The notes beneath the pieces were generated by a model. The model had not been told where the DNA came from. It saw only the letters and a program-made list of their open reading frames with translations, and did not search any database. From the IMG/VR virus record IMGVR_UViG_2541047885_000017, positions 1 to 11,845 of that record: DNA of 11,845 bases. One strand, written 5' to 3'. This document shows, in pieces, positions 188 to 11,845 of this stretch. The position numbers and the translations under genes were made by a program. The DNA is from a virus (taxonomy: Duplodnaviria > Heunggongvirae > Uroviricota > Caudoviricetes). The first letter of the stretch is position 1. Every line of letters begins with the position of its first letter.

Positions 188-451
188 TTGTTGAAGCTCT
201 ACGAACAACGACGAACAATAACAAACAAAAGGGAAATTTGCTGGCAGTTTTGCTTAACCGTTATCATTTTTCGGCTATCCGTTATCAAGCTGGTGGATGA
301 TTACGGATAACCCGTTATGGAGATCCCCATATCGGCATCATGCCCACCAGCATGAAGTATTTTTCGCGGGTGTAAAAATTTGACGGGGCGGACAGTTCCA
401 TAAGTAATGGGTTGCAGGAATTTCGATCCCCATCCTGAATGCAATTTTTCG

Positions 452-632
452 TATATATATATATACAAAACAGCGCGGGTTATGCGGGTTAGCGGGTTAT
501 CTTCGCGTGCTAAGCATTTTTTACTCTTTAATATCAATACGTTAAAAAACAACGTATTTAAATATCAGCCAGAGTGTAACCCGCAAGACATTCAAAATAA
601 CCCGCAAACACCCCTCAAAAAACCCGCAAAAA
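452..632. repeat. Structured non-coding array: (TA)7 tract, three tandem GCGGGTTA, AT-rich spacer, three inverted TAACCCGCAA at about 21 bp phasing
   Basis: Read directly: (TA)7 at 452-465; GCGGGTTA at 475-482, 484-491 and 492-499; AT-rich 501-576; the reverse-complement motif TAACCCGCAA at 577-586 and 598-607, and AACCCGCAA at 621-629. The two triplets face each other across the AT-rich centre. Role (integrase arm sites, terminase binding or origin) is inferred only. Confidence 0.55.
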
Positions 633-708
633 CATCCCTGAAAGTGGGTGCCGGTAATACTGAAAATTTATTCCATTAAATGAGCATTGTCCTCTCTCAT
701 CCATTCCG

Positions 709-2370
709 TTACACACCATCAAACGCCGCAAGCCGCTCTTTGTGGCTGTCGCTCATATCAAATGCAAATTCCTCATGCTCTGCCTGGAATGTGCCAAACG
801 CCATCAGCGCCGCAACGCTCGGGTCTATCTTGTTGGATGATTTTTTCTTGTTCGGCTTGATATTGGCGTTCGCGTCACTCTGCATCACAACATTACTCAT
901 TGACCAGGCCAGCACCGGATCACCACGATGCACAATCACCTTCCGGTTAACAAAAACTTCGAACGATTTCGCCGCCGGACTGAAACGAAGGTATGTTTGC
1001 GGGAACGGCTCCACCTCAAATCCTGCCCCCTGTAGCTGCGTCCTCAGGTGCGTGGCGTTCCATGTATCGAAGCCCACCAGCCTGATATTGAAATTCTCTG
1101 CATCCGCCATGATGTCATCACGGATACGGTCATAATCAATGCAGTCACCCGGTGTTGTGCGTATCCAGCCCGCCTTTACCCACTGGCGATAGATGGCGCG
1201 GTTTTTATTGGCGGGGTTCTGTAGCTGAAATTCCGGCAGATAGTGACGGGAAACCAGCATAATCTTTTTACCGACCGGAAAGGCATAGCACACGCTGGAA
1301 ATATCGCTGGTTGATGATAAGTCCAGCCCCGCGTAGCACTCCTGCCCGTATAAATCCGCCTCCGCGAACGTTCCGGCGCACTCCGCCCATGCACCGTTAC
1401 CCATCCACGGCGTAGCCCCCTGACACCAGATATTGAATCGCTTGGTGAGCATTTCCACCCACTGCGACGGAATACCCCGCGCTTTCTGGATGGTTGAGGC
1501 CAGTTTTTCACGATCGACGGAAACATCGATATTTGGATTCGCCTTTATCCACATCGCCGGATCGTCAACCTCGCTTTCATCATCCAGCTCGTAAATCAGA
1601 ACGAACATGGATTCGTTCATCTCTTCACCATCCAGTATCTGACAGCAATAGTCATAGTGTTGTTTACAGGCTGAAACAACGTTGCTCCCCGATGTGGTGA
1701 TGGCAAATAACAGCCCCTCCGGACGCGCCCCCATCCCCATATCAAGTGCGGAATAAACCCCGTTGTCTGGGTGCAGGTGATATTCATCCACAATGGCAAG
1801 ACTCGGGTTTGTCCCCTCAATGGTTGCCGCTTTTGCTGCCAGTGGCTTTAACAGGCTGTTGGTTTTCGGGTGTATCACCTTATGCGCCTGAATATTCACC
1901 CGCCTGCGTAACGGTCGGGATAAAAGGCACATCTGACGCGCATCATCAAAGACGATCCGCGCCTGGTCACGGCTCACCGCTGCGGTGTAGATATCCTGCT
2001 GACCGTTCTCCATAATCAAAAACCAGTTAGCCAGAATCGCGGCGGTCGTGGATTTCGCATTTTTGCGCGGCACTTCGATAAAGGCGCTCGTGTATTTGCG
2101 CCGTCCGGTGGCCTTAACCTTAAAGCCGAGGATGCACGCAAAGGCGAACTGCTGCCACGGCTCCAGCTCAATGGGTCTGCCACGCATCGGCCCTTTTACG
2201 TGCGGGCACACCCTGGAAAAGGCAATAAACCGCTCCACAACCTCACGATCGAACGTGTAAAGGGGGCTTTCAAGGTCCGAAAAGTACCGTTTAACGGCCT
2301 GTTTCAGCCGTTTACAGGCCGGAATTTTGCCCGTTTTTACGTCTTCTGCGTACTTATTCCAGGCGGTCAA
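709..2370 (-). CDS. terL: Phage terminase large subunit (ATPase/nuclease)
   Basis: 553-aa ORF. N-terminus MTAWNKYAEDVKTGKIPACKRLKQAVKRYF is typical of large terminases; P-loop-like PRKNAKSTTAAILANW; length and position after the small terminase fit. Starts at a TTG codon preceded by AAGAGGA with a 5-nt spacer, and overlaps the small terminase 3' end by 17 nt. Confidence 0.9.
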   Translation of the reverse strand: MTAWNKYAEDVKTGKIPACKRLKQAVKRYFSDLESPLYTFDREVVERFIAFSRVCPHVKGPMRGRPIELEPWQQFAFACILGFKVKATGRRKYTSAFIEVPRKNAKSTTAAILANWFLIMENGQQDIYTAAVSRDQARIVFDDARQMCLLSRPLRRRVNIQAHKVIHPKTNSLLKPLAAKAATIEGTNPSLAIVDEYHLHPDNGVYSALDMGMGARPEGLLFAITTSGSNVVSACKQHYDYCCQILDGEEMNESMFVLIYELDDESEVDDPAMWIKANPNIDVSVDREKLASTIQKARGIPSQWVEMLTKRFNIWCQGATPWMGNGAWAECAGTFAEADLYGQECYAGLDLSSTSDISSVCYAFPVGKKIMLVSRHYLPEFQLQNPANKNRAIYRQWVKAGWIRTTPGDCIDYDRIRDDIMADAENFNIRLVGFDTWNATHLRTQLQGAGFEVEPFPQTYLRFSPAAKSFEVFVNRKVIVHRGDPVLAWSMSNVVMQSDANANIKPNKKKSSNKIDPSVAALMAFGTFQAEHEEFAFDMSDSHKERLAAFDGV

Positions 2371-2710
2371 GCTCGTCCTCTTCTTCTGTTTCCGGTGGAT
2401 TTTTACGGCGGCTTATCGGGTCAAAACCGAGCAAGGAGGCCATTTTTATCATCACTCTTTCAGCGTCGGATTTTGCGCTTAATGCGGGGTTTCTGCTCTC
2501 GCCGCCCTGACTGTTAACAATGCTGAACCCGCGCGCCGCAAGGTCTGCGACGGCTTTCCGGTAAATGGAGTAGTTGACACAATACAGTTCCAGATTGCTC
2601 CAGTCGGCGGGGGTCAGGTCTCCCCGTTCCGCAAGCTGCCGCGATTTTTCCCGCCACTGCTTCACGGCGATATCATCCAGGTAGGCGGGGGCTTTCGGTG
2701 GTCTTGCCAT
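2354..2710 (-). CDS. terS: Phage terminase small subunit, P27 family
   Basis: 118-aa ORF MARPPKAPAYLDD...LELYCVNYSIYRKAVADLAARG...MASLLGFDPISRRK with acidic C-terminus, matching the P27-type small terminase pattern; sits immediately upstream of terL. The sequence just upstream of the ATG is a weak Shine-Dalgarno. Confidence 0.85.
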   Translation of the reverse strand: MARPPKAPAYLDDIAVKQWREKSRQLAERGDLTPADWSNLELYCVNYSIYRKAVADLAARGFSIVNSQGGESRNPALSAKSDAERVMIKMASLLGFDPISRRKNPPETEEEDELDRLE

Positions 2711-2998
2711 GCTTATTTTTCGTCAGATTATTTTTCAAAAAATTCCCGTGCATAAAAATTTGAGGAGGTGGTCGGTGTCCGGCAGGGACGGTTTCGTCCT
2801 GAAAACCTCCCCCACCCCCTCTGACGACTTCACCAGCGATTGCGAAAACATTCCATGACCTCGCGGTCACGGTCGGTTAATCGCTTCGCTGTGGTGCGTT
2901 CTATGCGTCCTGTCCTGTTGGCTTTGTGCCCTGTCTCCTGTGTCTTCCATAAGTCACGCTGCCTTATCAGTCCACGTATCAGCCTGTTTTGCTCCTGT
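2711..2998. other. Non-coding gap between HNH and terS; candidate cos/packaging-initiation region
   Basis: 288 bp without a convincing gene in an otherwise overlapping operon. Contains an imperfect hairpin cagggacggtttcgtcctg (2783-2801), a C-rich tract cctcccccaccccctc (2807-2822) and GAGGAGG (2763-2769). Position matches where HK97-like phages carry cos (between HNH and terS in the circular map). Assignment is by analogy only. Confidence 0.3.
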
Positions 2999-3439
2999 TC
3001 AGTCATCATCGCCATACATCCAGTCGTTACGATGTGCCGCCCGTTCTTCCTGCTCGCGATACATGCCCGCCTTACGGTTCGCTTTCGTGGCTGGATCTTC
3101 CCGTGTCGTCTTACGGTTGTGGCACGTCTGGCACAATGCCTGATGGTTCCACTCAGGCCAGAAGAGAACATCACCACCGCCATTGATGGGGATAATGTGA
3201 TCCACCACAAAGGCTGGCGTATAAATACCCTCAGCCAGACAACGCACACATAACGGATTTTTTTTCAGGTACAGGGCGCGATATTTGTCCCACTGTCGGG
3301 AATACCCGCGCGCGCGGCGGTGTCCTCGTCTGGCATCCTCTGCACGCCATGCCGCCCGCCTGTGCTCCTCACACTTGCCGGACTTCACGCGCCTGTTACA
3401 GCCTGGTTCTGTGCATCGTCTTAATGGTTGCCACGGCAT
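2999..3439 (-). CDS. HNH endonuclease (terminase-associated)
   Basis: 146-aa ORF with N-terminal Cys-rich MPWQPLRRCTEPGCNRRVKSGKCEEHRR and an HNH core LCVRCLAEG...VVDHIIPINGGGDVLFWPEWNHQALCQTCHNRKT. Start overlaps the stop of the upstream connector gene by 1 nt (TGATG). Confidence 0.85.
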   Translation of the reverse strand: MPWQPLRRCTEPGCNRRVKSGKCEEHRRAAWRAEDARRGHRRARGYSRQWDKYRALYLKKNPLCVRCLAEGIYTPAFVVDHIIPINGGGDVLFWPEWNHQALCQTCHNRKTTREDPATKANRKAGMYREQEERAAHRNDWMYGDDD

Positions 3440-3735
3440 CAGTACACCCCCACATCACGATAAACCGACCAGAGCGCGGAAATCGTCAGGGGAATTTCTT
3501 TTGTATCTGTATCGCCAAGCGTTGTCCGGTACTCGTACAGTTGCGAGATGTACATCAGGCAGCCAATTTTTATTGCAGGGGTAAATTCCAGGCCATCATC
3601 AAAACGCCTACCAATATGTTTCTGACATACCTCCAGCGCCGCGCTTATGTATGCCTGAATCAGTGTGTCTTCTGTGTTACCGTCTATGCGGCAGTGAAGT
3701 TTGGCTTCTTCCAGGGTTATTTTTTCTGCTGTCAT
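3439..3735 (-). CDS. Head-tail connector protein (gp6-like, DNA-packaging/head completion)
   Basis: 98-aa ORF MTAEKITLEEAKLHCRIDGNTEDTLIQAYISAALEVCQKHIGRRF, the characteristic N-terminal pattern of gp6-like head-tail connectors. 4-nt ATGA-type overlap with the upstream gene. Confidence 0.7.
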   Translation of the reverse strand: MTAEKITLEEAKLHCRIDGNTEDTLIQAYISAALEVCQKHIGRRFDDGLEFTPAIKIGCLMYISQLYEYRTTLGDTDTKEIPLTISALWSVYRDVGVY

Positions 3736-4070
3736 TTTTCTGTACCCACCTTTGCCAGAATTTCCAGCCGGGTTCTTTTCGCATCAGGTAAGGGGATCCC
3801 GATGATATTAAGCATGCTCCCGGCAAAAGCACCGGTAAGCACTTTCAGTCGACTGGCGGCGGATATGTCGCCACGATAGCGAACCCATACCCGAATCGTT
3901 GCAGGTGCGGTTTCTGCGCCTGCGGTCAGTAATTCCCGTCCGCTGATCCCCTTGACCTCTGCCCAGATGGTTTCCCCTTCCGTCCATATCTGCCGGATCG
4001 CTCCTGACGGCAGGCGCTGCGTGATAAATGTCATAATCGTCACCCGGTCCCGCATATTTCCGGCTATCAT
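3732..4070 (-). CDS. Head-tail adaptor / head closure protein
   Basis: 112-aa ORF in the position and size range of phage head-tail joining proteins, directly after the portal. Start ATG overlaps the portal stop (ATGA). Assigned by size, context and general resemblance, not a diagnostic motif. Confidence 0.6.
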   Translation of the reverse strand: MIAGNMRDRVTIMTFITQRLPSGAIRQIWTEGETIWAEVKGISGRELLTAGAETAPATIRVWVRYRGDISAASRLKVLTGAFAGSMLNIIGIPLPDAKRTRLEILAKVGTEK

Positions 4071-5290
4071 TCGTCACCGCCCTGACTGTTCTTGCTGATT
4101 GTCACTTCCTGCTTCCATGCCTGGCTGAACTCGTCGCCACCTTCACGCGGCGGCATTCCCTCACGCTCACGGGCTTCGTTCGGATTCATGATCCCGTTCT
4201 TAATCCCTTTCTCATACGTGGCGTAACGTTCGGTAGGGGTGGCGCGTAATAAATCAGCTGAATCAAACTCAACCAAATAACGGGTACCGGGTACGGGAGA
4301 AGCCACCAGCAAAGCGGCCTTGATTTGCTGTTCGAAGTTCGCCAGCCACGGGCGCATTGTCATGGTCAGAAACGCGCGGCTTGCCTCGCTGAAATTGCTG
4401 TAGGTGCTGTTGCTGTATTCCTGCAGAAAAATAGGCGATACGTTGAACATCCGGGCGATGTCTTCAATGGAGAAGCGACGGGAGGCCAGCCATTCCGCAT
4501 CCTGGTTACTCATTCCCAGTTGCTTGTAATCCATGCCCCCTTCAAGGATTGGCGTTTTTCCGGCATTTTTCGCCCCCTTGTAGCGTTCCAGAGCATCCAA
4601 TGCCTGTTTACCTTTCACGCCGTCCAGCCATTCGCCTGACGTGATAATCCCTGCCGCCATCATGCCATCTTTCATAATGCTGGCTCCGTGGCGCTGTTGA
4701 GCAAGGCCAAGCCCAAGTGCCTCACGGCAAATCGTGACAGGGGAGCGCCCCAGAAAGCCATCATCCGAGGCATAGCGGAGATGCAGAACTTCTTCCTGTA
4801 AATACGTGCGCACCGTTCCTGTATAGGGTTCGGTGATGGTATAGCGGTATTTGTGTGCGCCTGTGCGTTCCGGTACAACACAACCCGGTGCATAAGGATG
4901 AAGTGATTTTGGCTGACCGTCCCGCCCCCACTCAATAACCGCATAGGCGTTACCGTTCAGCAGGCAGTGACGCATCATTGTGCGTTTAAACTGGTAAGGT
5001 GTCTGGCACGAATTAGGCTGCTCATTCAGCAGAATATCTACCGGATGACTGTCCAGCCATTCCCGCGCCTCCCTGCCCTTGTCATTACGTACCAGATACA
5101 GATAACAAGGCATCGTGGCCACCGCCTCAGCGATGACAGAAACCGCGTTCATCACTGCAGGCAATGATTCAGCCGTCCCGGCAGAAACATATTCTCCGGA
5201 TCCGGTATTCGGTACGCCGGCCAGCGCCAGAAAATCATCAATGGACAGGTTACGTTGCTCACTTTTTTTACGACTAAAAGGCCACCACAT
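4067..5290 (-). CDS. Phage portal protein, HK97 family
   Basis: The track ORF (4067-5380) carries a Cys-rich 30-aa N-terminal extension that overlaps the protease gene. The Met at 5290 (MWWPFSRKKSEQ...) lies 1 nt after the protease stop and gives about 407 aa, typical portal length. The assignment rests on that length and on the conserved position between prohead protease and head-tail connector genes; no diagnostic motif was identified. Confidence 0.85.
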   Translation of the reverse strand: MWWPFSRKKSEQRNLSIDDFLALAGVPNTGSGEYVSAGTAESLPAVMNAVSVIAEAVATMPCYLYLVRNDKGREAREWLDSHPVDILLNEQPNSCQTPYQFKRTMMRHCLLNGNAYAVIEWGRDGQPKSLHPYAPGCVVPERTGAHKYRYTITEPYTGTVRTYLQEEVLHLRYASDDGFLGRSPVTICREALGLGLAQQRHGASIMKDGMMAAGIITSGEWLDGVKGKQALDALERYKGAKNAGKTPILEGGMDYKQLGMSNQDAEWLASRRFSIEDIARMFNVSPIFLQEYSNSTYSNFSEASRAFLTMTMRPWLANFEQQIKAALLVASPVPGTRYLVEFDSADLLRATPTERYATYEKGIKNGIMNPNEAREREGMPPREGGDEFSQAWKQEVTISKNSQGGDE

Positions 5291-5291
5291 A

Positions 5292-5852
5292 TCACAACCC
5301 CGCCAGCTCTGCCCAGCGATGACGATTATTTCCTGCCGGGCGTAATTCAGGGTGCAGTGCAAACAACGAACGGTGGGCAATCTCCACGCCAGATTCTGGA
5401 TAAGCAGGCATCGACGTTATCGTGATTTCACGGAGTTCTGCGGCGGTAACAGTGCGCAGATACGGTTTTTGCGCGATATTCCACTCCTCGCATAATGCGC
5501 GAAAGCCAAAGCTCATTCCTGTAATGTCGCCCCGCTCCACCAGCGTAAGCACATCTTTCCCAAGCTGGGTATCCGGCGGTGTCAGTTCAAAACGTAACCC
5601 GGTGTTATCCTCAGTCAGTACCAGAGTGCCGGATTTGGTACGCCCCAGCAGTCGGGTACAGTCATGCTCATACAGGCAGCGCACATCATTACCCGCAGCC
5701 AGATAGTCAGCAAAAGCCCCCGGCGTGAACTGTTCGCGGAACTCATCCCAGATAATTTCTGAAAGGCTGTTCCAGCGAACGGCATACCCCACCAGCTTTT
5801 TATTGCTGGCGGTCAGTTCAGATGTGCGGATTTCAAAATCGGTGTTTTTCAT
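5292..5852 (-). CDS. Prohead maturation protease, HK97 family (S78-like)
   Basis: 186-aa ORF MKNTDFEIRTSELTASNKKLVGYAVRWNS...CLYEHD...GDITGMSFGF: typical length, His-containing and GxSxG-like serine motifs, and position between capsid and portal. Confidence 0.9.
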   Translation of the reverse strand: MKNTDFEIRTSELTASNKKLVGYAVRWNSLSEIIWDEFREQFTPGAFADYLAAGNDVRCLYEHDCTRLLGRTKSGTLVLTEDNTGLRFELTPPDTQLGKDVLTLVERGDITGMSFGFRALCEEWNIAQKPYLRTVTAAELREITITSMPAYPESGVEIAHRSLFALHPELRPAGNNRHRWAELAGL

Positions 5853-5906
5853 CGGTGTACTCCATAAAGCTGAAAAAGGAGGCCGCAGCCTCCTCCTTAC
5901 TCATGA

Positions 5907-7076
5907 CTAGCCAGCTTTCATTTCCAGAATTTTGATGGCGTTTGAATCCACCACACCACCGCCCAGATATTTATCCGTGTGGACCTTGTAGAATCCGGGT
6001 TCAGTAATGTTGTCCGGTCGGGTGCGAATACCCGTTACATGATCAACGATGAAATAACCACGACTGAAATCACCAACCGCGAGCGGTGCTTTTCCTGCGC
6101 CGATGTCCGGCATGGACTCCAGGCAGTAAACAGGACGACCAAGCAACATATCCGGCGCACCTTCTTTAAGGCTGTCGCGCCAGATATAATCTCCATTCTC
6201 ATTTTTCAGCTTCTGTAGTGTCCCTGCCGTGCCCGAGTTCATCACCCAGACGGCATTTTTGCGGTATTTCGCTTTCAGCTTGTAGAGAATGTCGATCAGT
6301 TCGTCCGCTGTAATGGAGGTTCCACTTGCCGCTACCATTTTTTCAATGGTGCCAAAAGCGCGGGTTTTGTCACTGGTCGCTGCACGGGTGTAAGCCATGA
6401 AGCCTTTCGGCTTGCCGTTACCGTCGCCATTAACAAAATCATCCTCTTCGGTGCTGGCGAACGTGTCGGCAATTTCGGAGGATAACCAGCCCAGAATATC
6501 CACCTCTGAAAAATCCAGGATTTCCTGCGTGGTTTTCGGGTAGGCGTAGATCGGATTCAGCTTGATGGTTACGCGTTCAATTTTCGGGGTGTTGGTTTCG
6601 CTGCGCGCGCTGCCTTCTGTGCCTCGTCCTACAGTTGCGCCGCCAGTGGAAACCAGTTTCTGAAACTCATTTGATTTTGCGGTCTTCACGGTCGCGATCA
6701 CGCGCATAACACTGTCATCCTGTAGCTGGCGCATGACTTCGCGATCAAGCTCAGGAATTACGGTATATCCGCCATCCCTGCCGCTGTCAGTGCTGGTGGA
6801 CAGTGATCGCACATCTCCGGTTACGATGTAGTTACGCAATTCATCAGATGATAATTTCTGGATGCCCGTTCCTGGCTTGCTGCGTTCTTCATCAGCCACA
6901 GACTCGAGGCGGGAAATTTCTGTGTCGAGGGAATCGGCTTTTGCACGCAGTTCATCAAACTGTTTGCCCTCGTCATCGTTCAGGCTGCGGTTTTCACTGT
7001 CGGCTTTTTCCAGCAGGGATCGCATCTGGTTTTTCAGGGCGGTTTTTTGCTGGCGGAGTTCGATTAATTTCTTCAT
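5907..7076 (-). CDS. Major capsid protein, HK97 fold, with N-terminal delta/scaffold domain
   Basis: 389-aa ORF. The first 100 or so residues are a coiled-coil-like charged region (MKKLIELRQQKTALKNQMRSLLEKADSENRSL...), as in HK97-type capsid delta domains, followed by a capsid-sized body; adjacent to the prohead protease. Confidence 0.9.
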   Translation of the reverse strand: MKKLIELRQQKTALKNQMRSLLEKADSENRSLNDDEGKQFDELRAKADSLDTEISRLESVADEERSKPGTGIQKLSSDELRNYIVTGDVRSLSTSTDSGRDGGYTVIPELDREVMRQLQDDSVMRVIATVKTAKSNEFQKLVSTGGATVGRGTEGSARSETNTPKIERVTIKLNPIYAYPKTTQEILDFSEVDILGWLSSEIADTFASTEEDDFVNGDGNGKPKGFMAYTRAATSDKTRAFGTIEKMVAASGTSITADELIDILYKLKAKYRKNAVWVMNSGTAGTLQKLKNENGDYIWRDSLKEGAPDMLLGRPVYCLESMPDIGAGKAPLAVGDFSRGYFIVDHVTGIRTRPDNITEPGFYKVHTDKYLGGGVVDSNAIKILEMKAG

Positions 7077-7270
7077 GAAGGTTTTCTCGTATTGGTTAAG
7101 ATTCAGGACGTGAAACCAACACGGAGGGAGCGCCGCCCGACACTCTCAGCATCTCGCAGATCAACCCGGCATCGCGCAGGGGGTCAGGCGGCATTGTGGC
7201 GGCTCACGTCTGAGTGCCACACGCCAACATATACATAAAAATCAGTATGTAAACATCAGCCAGAATCACC

Positions 7271-7296
7271 GAACAATCTGGAACAACCGCGAACAA
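7271..7296. promoter_or_regulatory. Three GAACAA direct repeats at exactly 10-bp phasing upstream of the capsid operon
   Basis: Read directly: GAACAA at 7271-7276, 7281-7286 and 7291-7296 (TTGTTC on the coding minus strand). They lie between the terminator and the capsid start in a 273-bp non-coding leader. A regulatory role is inferred. Confidence 0.3.
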
Positions 7297-7313
7297 ATAA
7301 TTTACAAAACCTG

Positions 7314-7340
7314 AAAAAAGACCCGGGAAAAATCCGGGCC
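7314..7340 (-). terminator. Rho-independent terminator
   Basis: Minus-strand RNA reads GGCCCGG-AUUUUUC-CCGGGUC followed by UUUUUU: a GC-rich stem of 5-7 bp, 7-nt loop and T-tract. It starts 10 nt after the stop of the 82-aa ORF and is followed by a long leader before the capsid gene. Confidence 0.6.
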
Positions 7341-7349
7341 TTTATCGCT

Positions 7350-7598
7350 TTACTGTTTCACGGGATCGCGCATTCTGCGCCTTATTTTCCACAAATATTC
7401 GATCATCGCTTCCACCTGCTCACGGTTGGTTGCGAAAATTTCCCCGGTCAGTGAGCTGCGCAGAAAATCATGATGATCCACAACAAACAACGCATCGGAA
7501 GAAAGCAGACGGCGATATTTTTTTGCTGTCGTGGTTTCCAGATCATCAAAACCATGAAACTTTTTATGTTGCTGAACTTCTTCAAATGTCACAGGCAT
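7350..7598 (-). CDS. Hypothetical protein (82 aa)
   Basis: Track ORF 7350-7637; preferred start is the internal Met at 7598 (MPVTFEEVQQHKKF...), preceded by AGGAGGA with a 5-nt spacer. No recognisable motif. Last gene before the terminator. Confidence 0.5.
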   Translation of the reverse strand: MPVTFEEVQQHKKFHGFDDLETTTAKKYRRLLSSDALFVVDHHDFLRSSLTGEIFATNREQVEAMIEYLWKIRRRMRDPVKQ

Positions 7599-7643
7599 GT
7601 TTCCTCCTGCTACCACGATACCAGAAACAGTTAACAACCGTTA

Positions 7644-7925
7644 TCAATTATCCCTTTTTTTCGGGTAGTTCCTGAACATCTCACCGCCAGGTTTCTGTAA
7701 GCCCATCCCGGTATGTGTGCGGTTTATGGCCTCTTTCAGTATTCCGAAATTATCCGGTATGACTGGTTGGCGCGCTGCCTTACGGATACATTCCGCGCGA
7801 CGCTTTGCCACCTGTTCGCGCTCCTTGTCAGTGCTCACCAGCCACATAACATCAGCCCAACGTGCCGCTGCTCTCCGGTACAGCCCTTTAGCCTCCAGTT
7901 CTTCCGCTTTGCTGTCTTTAATCAT
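7644..7925 (-). CDS. Small regulatory protein, possibly PerC-family transcriptional activator-like
   Basis: Preferred start is the ATG at 7925 (MIKDSKAEELEAKGLYRRAAARWADVMWLVSTDKEREQVAKRRAECIRKAARQP), preceded by GAGG with a 6-nt spacer. The KAEELEAKGLYRRAAARW...RR..CI pattern resembles PerC/Pch-type activators as I recall them; this is not verified by search. Confidence 0.45.
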   Translation of the reverse strand: MIKDSKAEELEAKGLYRRAAARWADVMWLVSTDKEREQVAKRRAECIRKAARQPVIPDNFGILKEAINRTHTGMGLQKPGGEMFRNYPKKRDN

Positions 7926-7940
7926 GCTGTACCTCACTGC

Positions 7941-8366
7941 TTAAAACGGTATCCCGTCCCCGTACGGGTCATCGTGCTGGCTTGTCTGTTGTTTTGCCCT
8001 GTTCAGTGCGTCAGTGTCCTGGCCCTGTTGACCTTTTTTGCCGCCCGGTCGCGCCGTTCGCGCACTGATTACGCTGTCTGCAATAACCTGCCAGCCCTGC
8101 CGCGTTTCCCCGTTCTGGCCTGTCCACTGGCTCACCTGCATTGTGCCGGATACGCTGGCAACATCGCCTTTGTGGTGTTTAGCCAGGAAGTCAGCCTGTT
8201 TGCCAAATGCGATGACCGACAACCACAACGTCGCCTGTCCGTCCTGTGCCTGACTGCATGGCAGTGATACCGCCATACGCGCCAGCGTCATCGGTGTGCC
8301 CTTGCTGGTCTGTTTTACCTGCGGGTCGTCCACCAGCCGCCCGTAAGCGGCTATCTGTGCTGTCAT
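7941..8366 (-). CDS. ssb: Single-stranded DNA-binding protein
   Basis: 141-aa ORF. The OB-fold region aligns by eye with E. coli SSB (GRLVDDPQV vs GNLGQDPEV; WLSVIAFGKQADFLAKHHKGDVASVSGTMQVSQWTGQNGE vs [41 protein letters not shown]). Gly/Gln-rich linker and acidic tail ending DGIPF (cf. DDDIPF). Strong RBS GGAGAGG. Confidence 0.85.
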   Translation of the reverse strand: MTAQIAAYGRLVDDPQVKQTSKGTPMTLARMAVSLPCSQAQDGQATLWLSVIAFGKQADFLAKHHKGDVASVSGTMQVSQWTGQNGETRQGWQVIADSVISARTARPGGKKGQQGQDTDALNRAKQQTSQHDDPYGDGIPF

Positions 8367-8620
8367 GATTCCACCTCTCCGGTTTTAACGTTGATGGTTG
8401 TTACCTGTTCTGCTTCTGCGATCTCCCGTTCTGTCAGCGTGGCAAAGTTTGCCGCTGCTGTGGTCATGAATGCGCTTATCAGGTCGGGATGTGCTTTCGC
8501 GTATCCTTCCCCCGTGTTGCGGTCGATGATTTTTATCGCCACTCTCAGCCAGTGCTCTGTAAGGTCAATGGCGCGGTTATGCTGCTTCTTCTGATTATTA
8601 AGTTTTCCTGATGTGCGCAT
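8363..8620 (-). CDS. Hypothetical protein (85 aa)
   Basis: ORF between the iteron block and ssb. Its stop overlaps the ssb start (ATGA). No recognisable motif. Confidence 0.45.
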   Translation of the reverse strand: MRTSGKLNNQKKQHNRAIDLTEHWLRVAIKIIDRNTGEGYAKAHPDLISAFMTTAAANFATLTEREIAEAEQVTTINVKTGEVES

Positions 8621-8663
8621 TTTTATTTTTACCCCCTCGTTTAAAAAGTTTTGAGTTGTGCCT

Positions 8664-8900
8664 CCCCCCCTCTACCCATCTACCCGAATGCTCATCATGT
8701 CAGTAATGGCGCGGCTTTCAGCGGGTAGATAGCTTTTTTGGCTCCTCTACCTGCCGTCTACCCTGCTACCTGAAACTGATAAAATCAGGTAGAAGAGGTA
8801 GAGAGCTTTTATTAGCCTTCTACCTGGCCCTCTACCTACTTATCATGTTGAATAATATGCGTTTATTTCATTCAGGTAGATGGGGTAGAGGGCTTTTACA
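8664..8900. repeat. Iteron array; putative origin of replication
   Basis: Read directly: about 12 copies of the hexamer TCTACC or its complement GGTAGA in about 220 bp, mostly in closely spaced pairs (8671/8679, 8723 rc, 8746/8757/8766, 8788/8797 rc, 8819/8831, 8875/8884 rc), interspersed with AT-rich stretches (8771-8786, 8837-8873). A 28-bp unit CAGGTAGAnGnGGTAGAGnGCTTTTA recurs at 8786 and 8873. Located immediately 3' of the primase-helicase gene. Confidence 0.7.
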
Positions 8901-8905
8901 AAAAA

Positions 8906-10660
8906 TTATAAAAACGCGTCGCAATCGTCTGTTGTAATTGCGTTGGTCTGCGTTACTCCCTTAACTTTTCGCGTAATATATTCATGTCCGTAAACTTTCG
9001 CCGCTGGCTTCATGGCCTTGCTGAACTCAGCCACGTTTAGCGGTTTGCTCCTGCCTGCGTATGCCATAAACGCCAGATAGACGCGGTAAAGGCTGTTTCT
9101 GGTCGTGTACCTGGAAGAGTCACCGCCGCCGCCCATCATCAGGCCGCGTGCTTCTTCCAGAAAGTTAAGGAACTGGCAAAACTCAATAACCGGATCCGTC
9201 TGTTGCTTTATTGCCAGTGCTTCATCACCGTCACGCTGTTCCAGTAGTAAAGCCCGTGCCTTCTCAGGGTCGGTAAAGTTCGCCAGCAATCGGCGGATAA
9301 TGACAGGGATTTCAGCCGCGATCTTTTCCGGTAGCTCCCTGTCTTTTTCGGCCTCACTGACGATATTGTCGAAACGGAAAATCACGCGACGACGTGCCAC
9401 ACCTCCGGCCCGTTCGGTGAATATCATCGGGTTATTATTGGTTGCCAGCACAACCGCCCTGATTACCGCTGTGAAACGCTTTTCATATTTCGGGTTGATT
9501 TCCACGGGGTCGCCGCCCGTGATTTTCTTGATGCCCGTGCCTTCGCCTGTATATTTCGGCTGGTCTGCCAGGACGATAAGACGACTCCCGACAACCTGCG
9601 CACGTCCACCAGCATCATCAAGCGATGTCATTTCAGCGCTTACCGTGTTTTGTTTCCCTGCCAGAAGGCTGGCTATGTGTGTGAATGTACTTTTACCGCT
9701 CCCGCCGTCTCCGGTGGCCTCAATAAACATCTGCCAGTCGTACCGGTTCGCCATAATCATGTACAGCGCGGCACATATACGCATCATCTTGCGCGGGTCT
9801 TTTCCGGCTGCGTGCTCAAGCCATTTATGAAAGTTTGGCGCGTTGTCGCGGATGTTCTCCCCTGGTGCTGCTGGCGTGTACTCAATGCCGTTGTGCGTGG
9901 TGATCCAGTTCTCCGGCGTGTGCGGGGAAAATTCCCCCGTTTTCAGGTCAAGCGCACCATTGGCGAACGGCAGCAAATCGCCGGACGGCTCGCCCATTGG
10001 TTCGGCAATAACTTTTAACGCTTCCACGGCGTTATTGATTACGCGCTTGCTGAAAGTGGCCCTGTGCTCTGAATAGATCGCCACCATTTCGCGGCTAAGT
10101 TCCATTGTGCTGACCGGACACCATACCCCGCCGCGCCATACGTGAACGATTTCACTTTCAGGATGTACGCAAACGCCATCAAAGCGATCGGCAAGCAGCT
10201 GCGCGCGCTCACTGTCCGCCATCTGCGAAAGTTGCGCCTTTTGCTTTACCGGAAGCTCAATAACCAGACCATCAGAAAGATTCTGGCGTTCACGGGCCAG
10301 ATATTCGCGCCAGTTCTGCACCTCCTGGCCGTGCATACCCTCAGGATAAAAATTTGCATCCTGTACGCCTGCCGCCGCCAGCTTCTGACCAATCGCCTTT
10401 ATCATTACAGGCGCAAGATATCCGGCCCTGTATATGCGTGCTGATTTTCGGCCTTCCGGCACAATTTGCAGATTATCCAGTTCGGATAGCTGCTGCTCCC
10501 CAAGCCACACAGGAGGCTCATTATCTCCGGCCATACGCGCATCATGTTCCTGCCATTGTTTCGCGTGTGACCAGGCATCACTACCCGCAAAAATAATGAC
10601 TTCTGTTTCTTTGTGTTTTATGCCGCGTGACTGCTGTTTTACGTTCGGTGCCAGTTTCAT
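8906..10660 (-). CDS. Replication initiator: P4/D5-family DNA primase-helicase (SF3-type P-loop NTPase)
   Basis: 584-aa ORF. Walker A ATGDGGSGKST; hydrophobic strand RLIVLADQ, Walker B-like; D5_N-like segment LPFANGALDLKTGEF. Start has AGGGG with a 5-nt spacer and overlaps the upstream ORF stop (ATGA). Confidence 0.85.
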   Translation of the reverse strand: MKLAPNVKQQSRGIKHKETEVIIFAGSDAWSHAKQWQEHDARMAGDNEPPVWLGEQQLSELDNLQIVPEGRKSARIYRAGYLAPVMIKAIGQKLAAAGVQDANFYPEGMHGQEVQNWREYLARERQNLSDGLVIELPVKQKAQLSQMADSERAQLLADRFDGVCVHPESEIVHVWRGGVWCPVSTMELSREMVAIYSEHRATFSKRVINNAVEALKVIAEPMGEPSGDLLPFANGALDLKTGEFSPHTPENWITTHNGIEYTPAAPGENIRDNAPNFHKWLEHAAGKDPRKMMRICAALYMIMANRYDWQMFIEATGDGGSGKSTFTHIASLLAGKQNTVSAEMTSLDDAGGRAQVVGSRLIVLADQPKYTGEGTGIKKITGGDPVEINPKYEKRFTAVIRAVVLATNNNPMIFTERAGGVARRRVIFRFDNIVSEAEKDRELPEKIAAEIPVIIRRLLANFTDPEKARALLLEQRDGDEALAIKQQTDPVIEFCQFLNFLEEARGLMMGGGGDSSRYTTRNSLYRVYLAFMAYAGRSKPLNVAEFSKAMKPAAKVYGHEYITRKVKGVTQTNAITTDDCDAFL

Positions 10661-10956
10661 TTTTTACCCCTGAATCCGTTAATCATGGTTTTCAGCTTCT
10701 GGATGTTTGCCCGTGCCCTGGCGTTGCTGGTGGGCACGTTATGCGGCGCGGTCTGTACCAGAGAAAAATCACGCCGGAACTGATAAACAGGCATCACGCA
10801 ATCATATTCGTAGCCTTCACGACGGTAGGTTACGCGCCGTTCCTCCACGCCCTTAATCATTACCGTGCCGCCGTACTGGTCGCGGTAAATATCACCGCGC
10901 ATGAATTTAGTGCGAGTTTTGCCACTGGCAGTTAAGCCAGAATATTTAAGTTTCAT
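10657..10956 (-). CDS. Hypothetical protein (99 aa, basic)
   Basis: ORF translationally coupled to the primase-helicase (ATGA overlap). No recognisable motif. Confidence 0.45.
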   Translation of the reverse strand: MKLKYSGLTASGKTRTKFMRGDIYRDQYGGTVMIKGVEERRVTYRREGYEYDCVMPVYQFRRDFSLVQTAPHNVPTSNARARANIQKLKTMINGFRGKK

Positions 10957-10961
10957 TATTT

Positions 10962-11195
10962 TTATTCTCCGGTGTGGGGCGCTTTATACTGGTCGTGTAA
11001 TGTCTCTATTTCCTGCAACTCATTTATTACAGGCTCAAGAAGCGTTATTAATGCCGTGGCAATTCTTGATTTTTGTTTGTCGCGTTCATTGTCGCCAAGT
11101 GTTTCAAGCCATATGCGCAATATTTCCAGCATGTTTTCACTGTGAGAAAGTGCAAGAAATGCGCGGTCTATTGTTTCGTGGTAAATATCACGCAT
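10962..11195 (-). CDS. Hypothetical protein (77 aa)
   Basis: ORF in the same orientation and tight spacing as its neighbours. No recognisable motif. Confidence 0.4.
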   Translation of the reverse strand: MRDIYHETIDRAFLALSHSENMLEILRIWLETLGDNERDKQKSRIATALITLLEPVINELQEIETLHDQYKAPHTGE

Positions 11196-11196
11196 A

Positions 11197-11649
11197 TTAA
11201 TCCCCGTCCGTCGTTTTTCTTAAAATAACCTCTGTCACGAAATCAGCATAATCGGCGGCGATATTCAGTACATCAAGCCCCGTTGATTTATATTCTCTCG
11301 TGGAAAGTAAGAAAAAAGCCGCTCTAATAAGTTCTGGCATTGACGAAAGCGCATCAGCCGCATCATCAGGAACGCCGGGAAATTCCTGTTTCAGGGCATT
11401 AAAACGATCATCACGCATAACCCCCCCATTTTCACAATCAGCAATCAGGATGGCTTTAGCCTCATTCAGTGCCATATCAGCACTAAGTTGCATAACAGCC
11501 AGTGAGTGAGGAACGAAAGCCCCGGCATATTCTGTTTCACTGGTGGCGTGCTTATGCGCCCTGTCCGCGATAACAGAAATATCAATCAGCGCATCAATCA
11601 GTGTTTTGATTGCTTCGGCGGCTGCGTCCGGACGGGTGTTATTGCACAT
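11197..11649 (-). CDS. Hypothetical protein (150 aa, acidic)
   Basis: ORF with a good RBS (AGGGGG, 5-nt spacer). Asp/Glu/Ala-rich. No recognisable motif. Confidence 0.5.
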   Translation of the reverse strand: MCNNTRPDAAAEAIKTLIDALIDISVIADRAHKHATSETEYAGAFVPHSLAVMQLSADMALNEAKAILIADCENGGVMRDDRFNALKQEFPGVPDDAADALSSMPELIRAAFFLLSTREYKSTGLDVLNIAADYADFVTEVILRKTTDGD

Positions 11650-11845
11650 GGCGCACCCCCTGACGAATACGGGCAGTAAATACCATCACGCAGCCAGCCG
11701 GGGATTGCTGGCGTGCTTCCTGTTCGCTGGTGGCCTCAATGTGAATCACGCGCGGTTGTGCGGTGCTCAGGGCAATAAAACGCCAGATGTATTTATTCAG
11801 GTTGTGTGAGTCCCGCCCTTGCGGGTGTGTGGTATGATTTCTCAT
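11639..11845 (-). CDS. Hypothetical protein, possibly truncated by the window edge
   Basis: ORF whose ATG coincides with the last three bases of the window, so the true start may lie outside. Overlaps the downstream ORF by 11 nt. No recognisable motif. Confidence 0.3.
   Translation of the reverse strand: MRNHTTHPQGRDSHNLNKYIWRFIALSTAQPRVIHIEATSEQEARQQSPAGCVMVFTARIRQGVRHVQ

Follow-up and report, generated by a model that had tools for sequence, protein, structure and literature searches.

The SaPI origin described by Ubeda and colleagues is said to consist of iteron sets that flank an AT-rich region, with Rep-specific iterons. Satellite phage P4 requires two distant iteron clusters, ori and crr, for its replication. 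In Escherichia coli PICIs, two iteron sets flanking an AT-rich region are found 3' of rep, and the rep-ori segment of EcCICFT073 replicates a plasmid on its own (PMC6092414). The repeat array described here shares with PICI and SaPI origins in general (PMC6092414) two sets of short iterons around an AT-rich, presumably melting region and an iteron sequence that is specific to the Rep allele. Unlike those origins, however, it is not located 3' of an initiator gene, and the resident initiator has another specificity. As far as its sequence indicates, the array is functionally an origin unit; contextually, it is displaced and mismatched. The explanation that we consider probable is that of a displaced PICI origin unit that lies beside cos, is heterologous in its present island, and can be used only by a Rep protein provided in trans, being otherwise baggage.

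The window (the whole stretch of 11,845 bp that was analyzed) represents a capsid-forming PICI (cf-PICI) of E. coli, with its insertion site upstream of thiM. Positions 1 to 95 are the host part, the leader of the thiM riboswitch, which is found in 5425 of the 5426 complete E. coli genomes; this alignment with genomes, proposed in the initial annotation as a check, places the island junction at position ~95. The same segment of the thiM TPP-riboswitch leader is 100% identical in most E. coli genomes. Rfam, used at the gathering threshold, does not call the riboswitch in positions 1 to 95, and we assume that the window perhaps starts within the riboswitch or just after it. All minus-strand genes of the window are satellite-like, and the gene order (Table 1) is that of Proteobacterial capsid-forming PICIs (bioRxiv 10.1101/2022.09.08.507074). 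A DUF4222 gene is found directly upstream of the replicase gene for every replicase type seen (DUF927, two D5-type primases, and RepA helicase), which suggests a replicon-independent accessory role. The exact combination of modules seen in the window is present in no complete E. coli genome.

Table 1. Coordinates of the array, its neighbors, and the genes of the window
Feature	Position	Strand	Remarks
phiP27-like cos block	362-442		phiP27/ST64B similarity; neighbor of the array, not part of it
Outer edge of the origin unit, CAATTTTTCG-(TA)7-CAAAACAG	443-474		easily melted; 19% G+C
(TA)7 tract	452-465		
Tandem iterons, GCGGGTTA x3	475-482, 484-491, 492-499	+	start spacing 9 and 8
Non-iteron spacer TCTTCGCGTGCTAAGCATTTTTTAC...	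500-531		conserved; most columns invariant among relocated copies
AT-rich center	501-576		32% G+C versus 51% in the whole window; presumed unwinding region
IHF-consensus site TATCAATACGTTA	532-544	+	perfect match to WATCAANNNNTTR
Spaced iterons (GCGGGTTA on the minus strand, within TAACCCGCAA)	577-586, 598-607	-	exact
Third spaced copy, AAACCCGCAA (GCGGGTTT)	620-629	-	9/10 match, imperfect
terL	709-2370	-	
terS, P27 family	2354-2710	-	
HNH	2999-3439	-	
Head-tail connector, head completion protein, portal, prohead protease		-	between HNH and major capsid in the gene list
Major capsid	5907-7076	-	
PerC, SSB		-	listed between major capsid and primase
Resident origin, 12 CTACC iterons, double-unit layout	8672-8890		just 3' of the primase gene
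Resident replicase, D5_N / DUF5906 / Pox_D5 domains	8906-10660	-	97.6% identical to EcCICFT073 Pri-Rep
DUF4222 gene	10657-10956		immediately upstream of the replicase gene

The array proper is a 181-bp stretch (positions 452 to 632) with five exact copies of GCGGGTTA and one near copy. Three tandem iterons face three opposed ones, the latter 21 to 22 bp apart, across the AT-rich center. The exact 8-mer GCGGGTTA occurs five times in the 11,845-bp window, always within the array, whereas no 8-mer is repeated more than 3 times in 2000 shuffles of the 181 bp. The coordinates and the shuffles thus bear out the opposed GCGGGTTA-type triplets, the AT-rich core, and the upstream (TA)7 tract of the initial annotation, and the start spacing of its right-hand copies (577, 598, and 620) is indeed 21 and then 22 bp. 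Its count of three plus three copies holds for the five exact ones; it missed that the third right-hand copy is imperfect. It also placed the array correctly in the last non-coding stretch of the element (96 to 708), downstream of terL, which ends 77 bp to the right of the array. No tRNA had been seen nearby, and scans with Rfam and tRNA models detect neither an Rfam family nor a tRNA. A scan of positions 90 to 760 for promoters and terminators yields no promoter, and the one hairpin found, at 338-355, is weak. The array region has a strong single-strand fold (z = -3.9), because its iterons are inverted.

The IHF consensus WATCAANNNNTTR has two perfect matches in the window, one of which falls inside the array center. 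In the homologues, the ATCAA and TT parts of this site are constant, except for one copy that has CTT instead; the site varies mainly at the N positions (TACG, TGCG, TATA, and TGAG) and at the R position (A/G). The ORF at 407-679 on the plus strand and the "hypothetical proteins" that RefSeq places over the array (e.g., at L003 16232-16567) are probably spurious, since homologues are separated by indels, not in multiples of three, in (TA)n and in runs of A and C, which makes ORFs across the array not credible.

Comparison with EcCIEDL933 identifies a homologue of the array with 80% identity over 157 bp, (TA)n tract included. Rather than occupying the distal end of the island, this homologue directly follows the 3' end of the DUF927 rep gene and is ~6 kb from terL. 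It is contiguous with a second GCGGGTTA cluster; we refer to the array homologue as unit A and to the second cluster as unit B. Unit B consists of four copies (three at 21-bp spacing and a fourth 11 bp on), an AT-rich stretch, and two tandem inverted copies, and unit A, when read on the other strand, has the same layout. The window unit and the EcCIEDL933 origin have in common the iteron (T)GCGGGTTA, the (TA)n edge, the spacer blocks, and the order of tandem set, AT-rich center, and phased set. Whereas the EcCIEDL933 unit adjoins unit B and directly follows rep on its 3' side, the window unit lies ~8 kb from the replicase (primase) gene, beside cos, with neither unit B nor a DUF927 Rep.

Related islands display two layouts. 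Units A and B are adjacent in L037, L038, L041-49, and L051; in EcCIEDL933 and across L037-L051, the homologous unit is located immediately 3' of the initiator gene. In the split layout, found in M15, GPT24-02, SM107, and Ec-RL2-1X, unit B remains at rep and unit A is ~8 to 10 kb off, at the integrase-distal end. In L003, L013 (GPT24-02), L014, L016, and many IMG/VR loci, ~8 kb separate unit B at rep from unit A beside cos, and the same iteron is found in two separated clusters in the split-type relatives L003, L013, L014, and L016-L022. Relocated and rep-adjacent layouts taken together, the array is present in 300 of the 5426 complete E. coli genomes.

The relationship between iteron and Rep was assessed by scanning IMG/VR with the DUF927 Rep and reading the iteron 3' of rep at each of the 80 loci found. 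The iteron is GCGGGTTA where Rep identity to the query is at least 83%, GGGACAA at 72 to 78%, and TGGGTTA at 67 to 68%; at lower identity, it is mostly TGAACCA and sometimes GGGATAA. Over the 80 loci, there are thus five iteron types that follow the Rep identity class, as in PICI/SaPI-type origins, and the iterons of the homologous unit A switch alongside. Other Rep classes also have a double-unit origin beside rep, with its distal half laid out like the array (spaced repeats, an AT-rich stretch, and tandem inverted repeats); depending on the Rep class, the counterpart of the tandem set at 475-499 is TGGGTTA, TGAACCA, or GGGACAA. In the examples read, the non-iteron flanks GTTTTG(TA)nCGAAAAAT and AAAAATRCTTAGCA.GAAGA are kept across classes and the iterons alone are exchanged. 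Specifically, unit A ends in the edge element GTTTTG(TA)nCGAAAAAT in each of the four iteron classes of DUF927-Rep origins; 39 distinct unit A copies retain this element, with the length of (TA)n as its sole variable. The spacer at 500-531 is shared by GCGGGTTA-class and TGGGTTA-class origins despite their different iterons.

Within the GCGGGTTA class, the iterons are the conserved part. Among 29 distinct relocated copies, 4 of the 48 iteron columns are variable, as against 61 of 133 elsewhere (Fisher p = 1e-6); the tandem iterons are near-invariant, and the T-to-A change in the third spaced copy is shared only with L144. Covariation of iteron and Rep is the strongest evidence, albeit from sequence comparison, that Rep reads the repeats. 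With three plus three opposed iterons around a center of low G+C content, the array has the architecture of a PICI origin, and positions 443 to 632 are very likely an origin unit by descent and architecture. The protein-binding architecture proposed in the initial annotation was, therefore, rightly recognized, in that homology and architecture connect the array with the Rep-iteron origin of DUF927-Rep PICIs. Of the candidates listed there, it is the "second origin-like element" that this homology supports, the resident origin being the one at 8672-8890.

The resident replicon is of a different type. The segment at 8672-8890 corresponds by homology to the EcCICFT073 ori, and the resident primase resembles the GCGGGTTA-class DUF927 Rep in the N-terminal region only, with 28% identity over ~370 amino acids. 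Neither unit B nor any further copy of GCGGGTTA is found in the 11,845-bp window, and no cognate DUF927 Rep is encoded in its 11.8 kb. In related islands, the remainder beyond the part equivalent to the window consists of regulators and int only. The array is heterologous in the window island because the resident replicase is a Pri-Rep with a CTACC origin of its own and because unit B and other GCGGGTTA copies are missing.

The array might alternatively serve as a second cis-acting site of the resident replicon, i.e., as a partner of the 8672-8890 origin similar to P4 crr and used by Pri-Rep. P4, in which both clusters are needed, provides a precedent, and the split-type islands do carry the same iteron at two distant places; like P4, these relatives have one initiator specificity and two clusters kilobases apart. 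The window differs in that it has one of the two clusters, a single GCGGGTTA cluster, and an initiator that does not match. Its two repeat clusters use unrelated iterons, CTACC and GCGGGTTA, with no GCGGGTTA near the primase gene and no CTACC cluster in the array. Furthermore, EcCICFT073, with its nearly identical Pri-Rep, has no GCGGGTTA cluster, and its rep-ori segment is reported to be self-replicating (PMC6092414). A role as a crr-like partner is, accordingly, very improbable.

Heterologous combinations of this kind are not confined to the window. An intact unit A is found with the CFT073-type Pri-Rep and CTACC iterons in the window, with a P4-like primase and GGTGAACAG iterons in CEA106S, L129, and L133, and with a RepA-family helicase and CTCCCCAC iterons in PEC148. 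The latter (L153) is a cf-PICI with the CTCCCCAC iterons at 12980-13200; its GCGGGTTA unit A, located beside cos at 3660-3825, is still intact. The presence of an intact unit A with three non-cognate replicon types, with one iteron substitution in all among the scored copies, hints at either very recent module shuffling or a constraint that is independent of Rep. The primases of CEA106S and SCU-123 are 48 to 49% identical to that of the window, and the iteron used there (L015 8760-9070 and L004 20690-21085, respectively) is GGTGAACAG / CTGTTCACC, the type I iteron of satellite phage P4. The iteron of P4 itself, TGTTCACC, is found in CEA106S and SCU-123 and not in the window.

The initial annotation overlooked a cos-like block immediately to the left of the array (Table 1). 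Over 62 bp, positions 362 to 423 match the annotated cos-site region of phiP27, located between HNH and terS, with 84% identity, and the block also matches the end of the ST64B genome; the annotated 10-nt P27 cos-site corresponds approximately to positions 385 to 394. The left cos flank, TTTCGCGGGTGTAAAAATTTGAC, is identical in phiP27 and ST64B. Every relocated copy of unit A adjoins a cos-like block, with a junction that is constant from about position 418, and in related islands at least three sequence variants of the block are joined to the same right-hand junction. With the orientation taken from phiP27, the terS side is the conserved left flank of the window block (~356 to 384), and the array lies on the HNH-side flank.

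Several side observations concern the surroundings of relocated units. Between the cos/unit A region and a 285-bp ORF downstream of terL, some islands contain 4 to 6 GTCAC repeats (L002 3790-3860, L003 16480-16560, and L154 3060-3110); the window, CEA106S, and GPT24-02 have neither these repeats nor the 285-bp ORF. GPT24-02 (L013 16012-16755 and 31798-32826) is a cf-PICI inserted inside terL of an HK97/P27-like prophage, i.e., a helper-embedded satellite, and its variant of the cos block is common to several IMG/VR loci.

The constant proximity to cos raises the possibility that the relocated unit has been co-opted as a packaging signal, a cosB- or cosQ-like array beside cosN that is bound by the P27-family TerS (or by HNH/TerL), bent by IHF, and helps cos recognition, or termination, by the satellite's own terminase. 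The opposed repeats around an IHF consensus recall the R3-I1-R2 arrangement of lambda cosB, and the iterons have stayed intact in islands with the three non-cognate replicon types listed above. TAACCCG, the core of the iteron, also forms the core of CTAACCCGATTTTTT, the 15-bp site (positions 15 to 29) that is bound by HK97 TerS (PMC11331095). The island TerS belongs to the same Pfam family as HK97 TerS (Terminase_4) and retains the Arg residue aligned with HK97 R7; its C-terminal SR motif, to be compared with S127-R128 of HK97, falls a few columns after R128 in the MAFFT alignment.

Such a packaging role is nevertheless unlikely. In EcCIEDL933, the experimentally studied prototype, the unit is found at rep, some 6 kb from terL, whereas L014 and L117 carry cos and unit A but no terminase or capsid genes. 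SaT040-type cf-PICIs (17 genomes), which are the closest match to positions 702 to 11845 of the window, have the same TerS allele (WP_000113645, 100% identical) and the cos block, but no array. In cf-PICIs of other Rep classes, terL is followed by extra genes and no array, and a TerL search of genome contigs, which returned 5 loci, finds no comparable array after terL. Neither the presence nor the sequence of the array follows the terS gene, and the iterons of homologous units follow the Rep class, not the TerS class. A cosB-like TerS array was an early favorite, as the array seemed to travel with terS/terL (in L003) and the IHF site varied mainly at its N positions. It was dropped, and with it went the support for the "small-terminase recognition sites" of the initial annotation, because the unit is at rep in EcCIEDL933, is found in terminase-less PICIs, and is missing from islands with the same TerS.

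The comparison with HK97 is likewise limited to the TAACCCG core and the TerS family. HK97 TerS binds a single 15-bp site with an A-tract, 15 to 29 bp from the cut on the terS side (PMC11331095), which by phiP27 homology would correspond to the left flank (~356 to 384) and not to the array side. The window array, in contrast, has six copies at a distance of 80 to 240 bp, and these are on the opposite flank of the cos block when it is oriented as in phiP27. With lambda cosB (R3-I1-R2-R1), the array shares opposed repeats around an IHF site at ~60 to 240 bp from a cosN-like sequence. However, the number, spacing, and sequence of the repeats are different, the window has no Nu1-type TerS, and the array is origin-derived and does not follow TerS in its presence; the likeness to lambda cosB is superficial.

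An HK97-like TerS site, CGCTAACCCGC, that was noted downstream of terL in EDL933-type islands as a match to the array has been downgraded, because it is one member of a variable GAAAATATCARCNNGTTA family that resembles the IHF consensus and is also found in EcCICFT073, which has no TerS. The integrase-distal ends of the EDL933 (L012 8370-8790) and CFT073 (L151 11650-11900) islands contain 3 to 6 repeats of GAAAATATCA(A/G)CNNGTTA, several of which match the IHF consensus, reading TAACCCGTTGAT on the other strand. These repeats may be part of the cos regions of the EDL933 and CFT073 islands.

A dual-use site, in which the DUF927 Rep and the HK97/P27-family TerS would both read the GCGGGTTA/TAACCCGC repeats, is a still more doubtful proposal. 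If true, it would make an origin unit placed against cosN a private, high-avidity packaging signal or a means of coupling replication to packaging, and it would explain why the unit is intact in islands that have switched to three other replicon types.

The location of the array near an island end, together with repeats in two orientations and helical phasing, which are typical of arm sites, would also fit a set of attP arm-type sites for the integrase or the excisionase; the initial annotation suggested integrase arm-type sites beside an att core. Natural recombinants contradict this reading. M15, inserted at the yifB site with an integrase 69% identical to those of the thiM-site islands, has an array that is 90% identical, and GPT24-02, with an in-terL site and an integrase of 41% identity, has one that is 96% identical. 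Conversely, SCU-123, another PICI at the same thiM site, encodes an integrase with 96.5% identity and shares positions 1 to 396 of the window but has no array. The array thus does not covary with either the integrase or the att site. In addition, positions 475 to 629 are 380 to 535 bp from the junction, beyond the roughly 150 to 250 bp expected for arm sites, and two copies of CTGACCACAC at 163-184, which change with the integrase type, are better candidates. Arm-type sites can be considered refuted for this array, with hardly any probability left to them.

The two CTGACCACAC copies are direct repeats in an 11-bp register, ~70 to 90 bp inside the junction; in islands with the 69% identical integrase, their position reads GACTACACC / AACTACACC. 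Farther inside, at 258-318, there are three CCGTTAT(C/G) copies (TAACCGTTATCA, CTATCCGTTATCA, and TAACCCGTTATGG) that are common to the thiM-site islands, with a related motif in SaT040. These copies may be accessory sites for Xis or Int.

Under the preferred explanation, that of a displaced origin unit, positions 443 to 632 would be the complete unit A half of a double iteron origin that is normally found directly 3' of a DUF927-family rep gene. In one lineage, unit A would have moved by ~8 kb to adjoin the cos block at the integrase-distal end, and the relocated unit would now travel with that end of the packaging module. By analogy with SaPI/PICI origins, a GCGGGTTA-specific Rep (an initiator-helicase) would bind the three tandem and three phased iterons, IHF would bend the AT-rich center, and either the center or the (TA)n edge would melt, with loading of the helicase. 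In the window island, where the cognate Rep is absent and the resident replicase is an EcCICFT073-type Pri-Rep with a CTACC origin, the unit would accordingly be expected to fire only with a GCGGGTTA-class Rep acting in trans from a co-resident PICI. Otherwise, it would be silent baggage, imported with the cos-terL end by modular recombination, and its origin activity in this island may be nil.

In a limited literature search, no paper was found to describe the double-unit origin, a move of it to cos, or its occurrence with other replicons, and a full-text search for the iteron sequence returned unrelated primers only. Neither cos nor the array is mapped in the cf-PICI papers covered by the search. 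The organization seen here departs from the picture of a rep-adjacent, rep-matched PICI origin in three respects: the satellite origin associated with the DUF927 Rep is a double unit, half of it has been moved next to cos in a large group of E. coli satellites, and the moved half is now passed on, together with the packaging end, to islands whose replicons are unrelated. Activity of the unit in trans would allow co-resident satellites to switch on one another's replication. Should terminase bind it, the unit would provide a new route to satellite-specific packaging, the question that capsid-forming PICIs pose. As baggage, it would still serve as a useful marker of module exchange and as a caution against calling repeat arrays at island ends att or cos.
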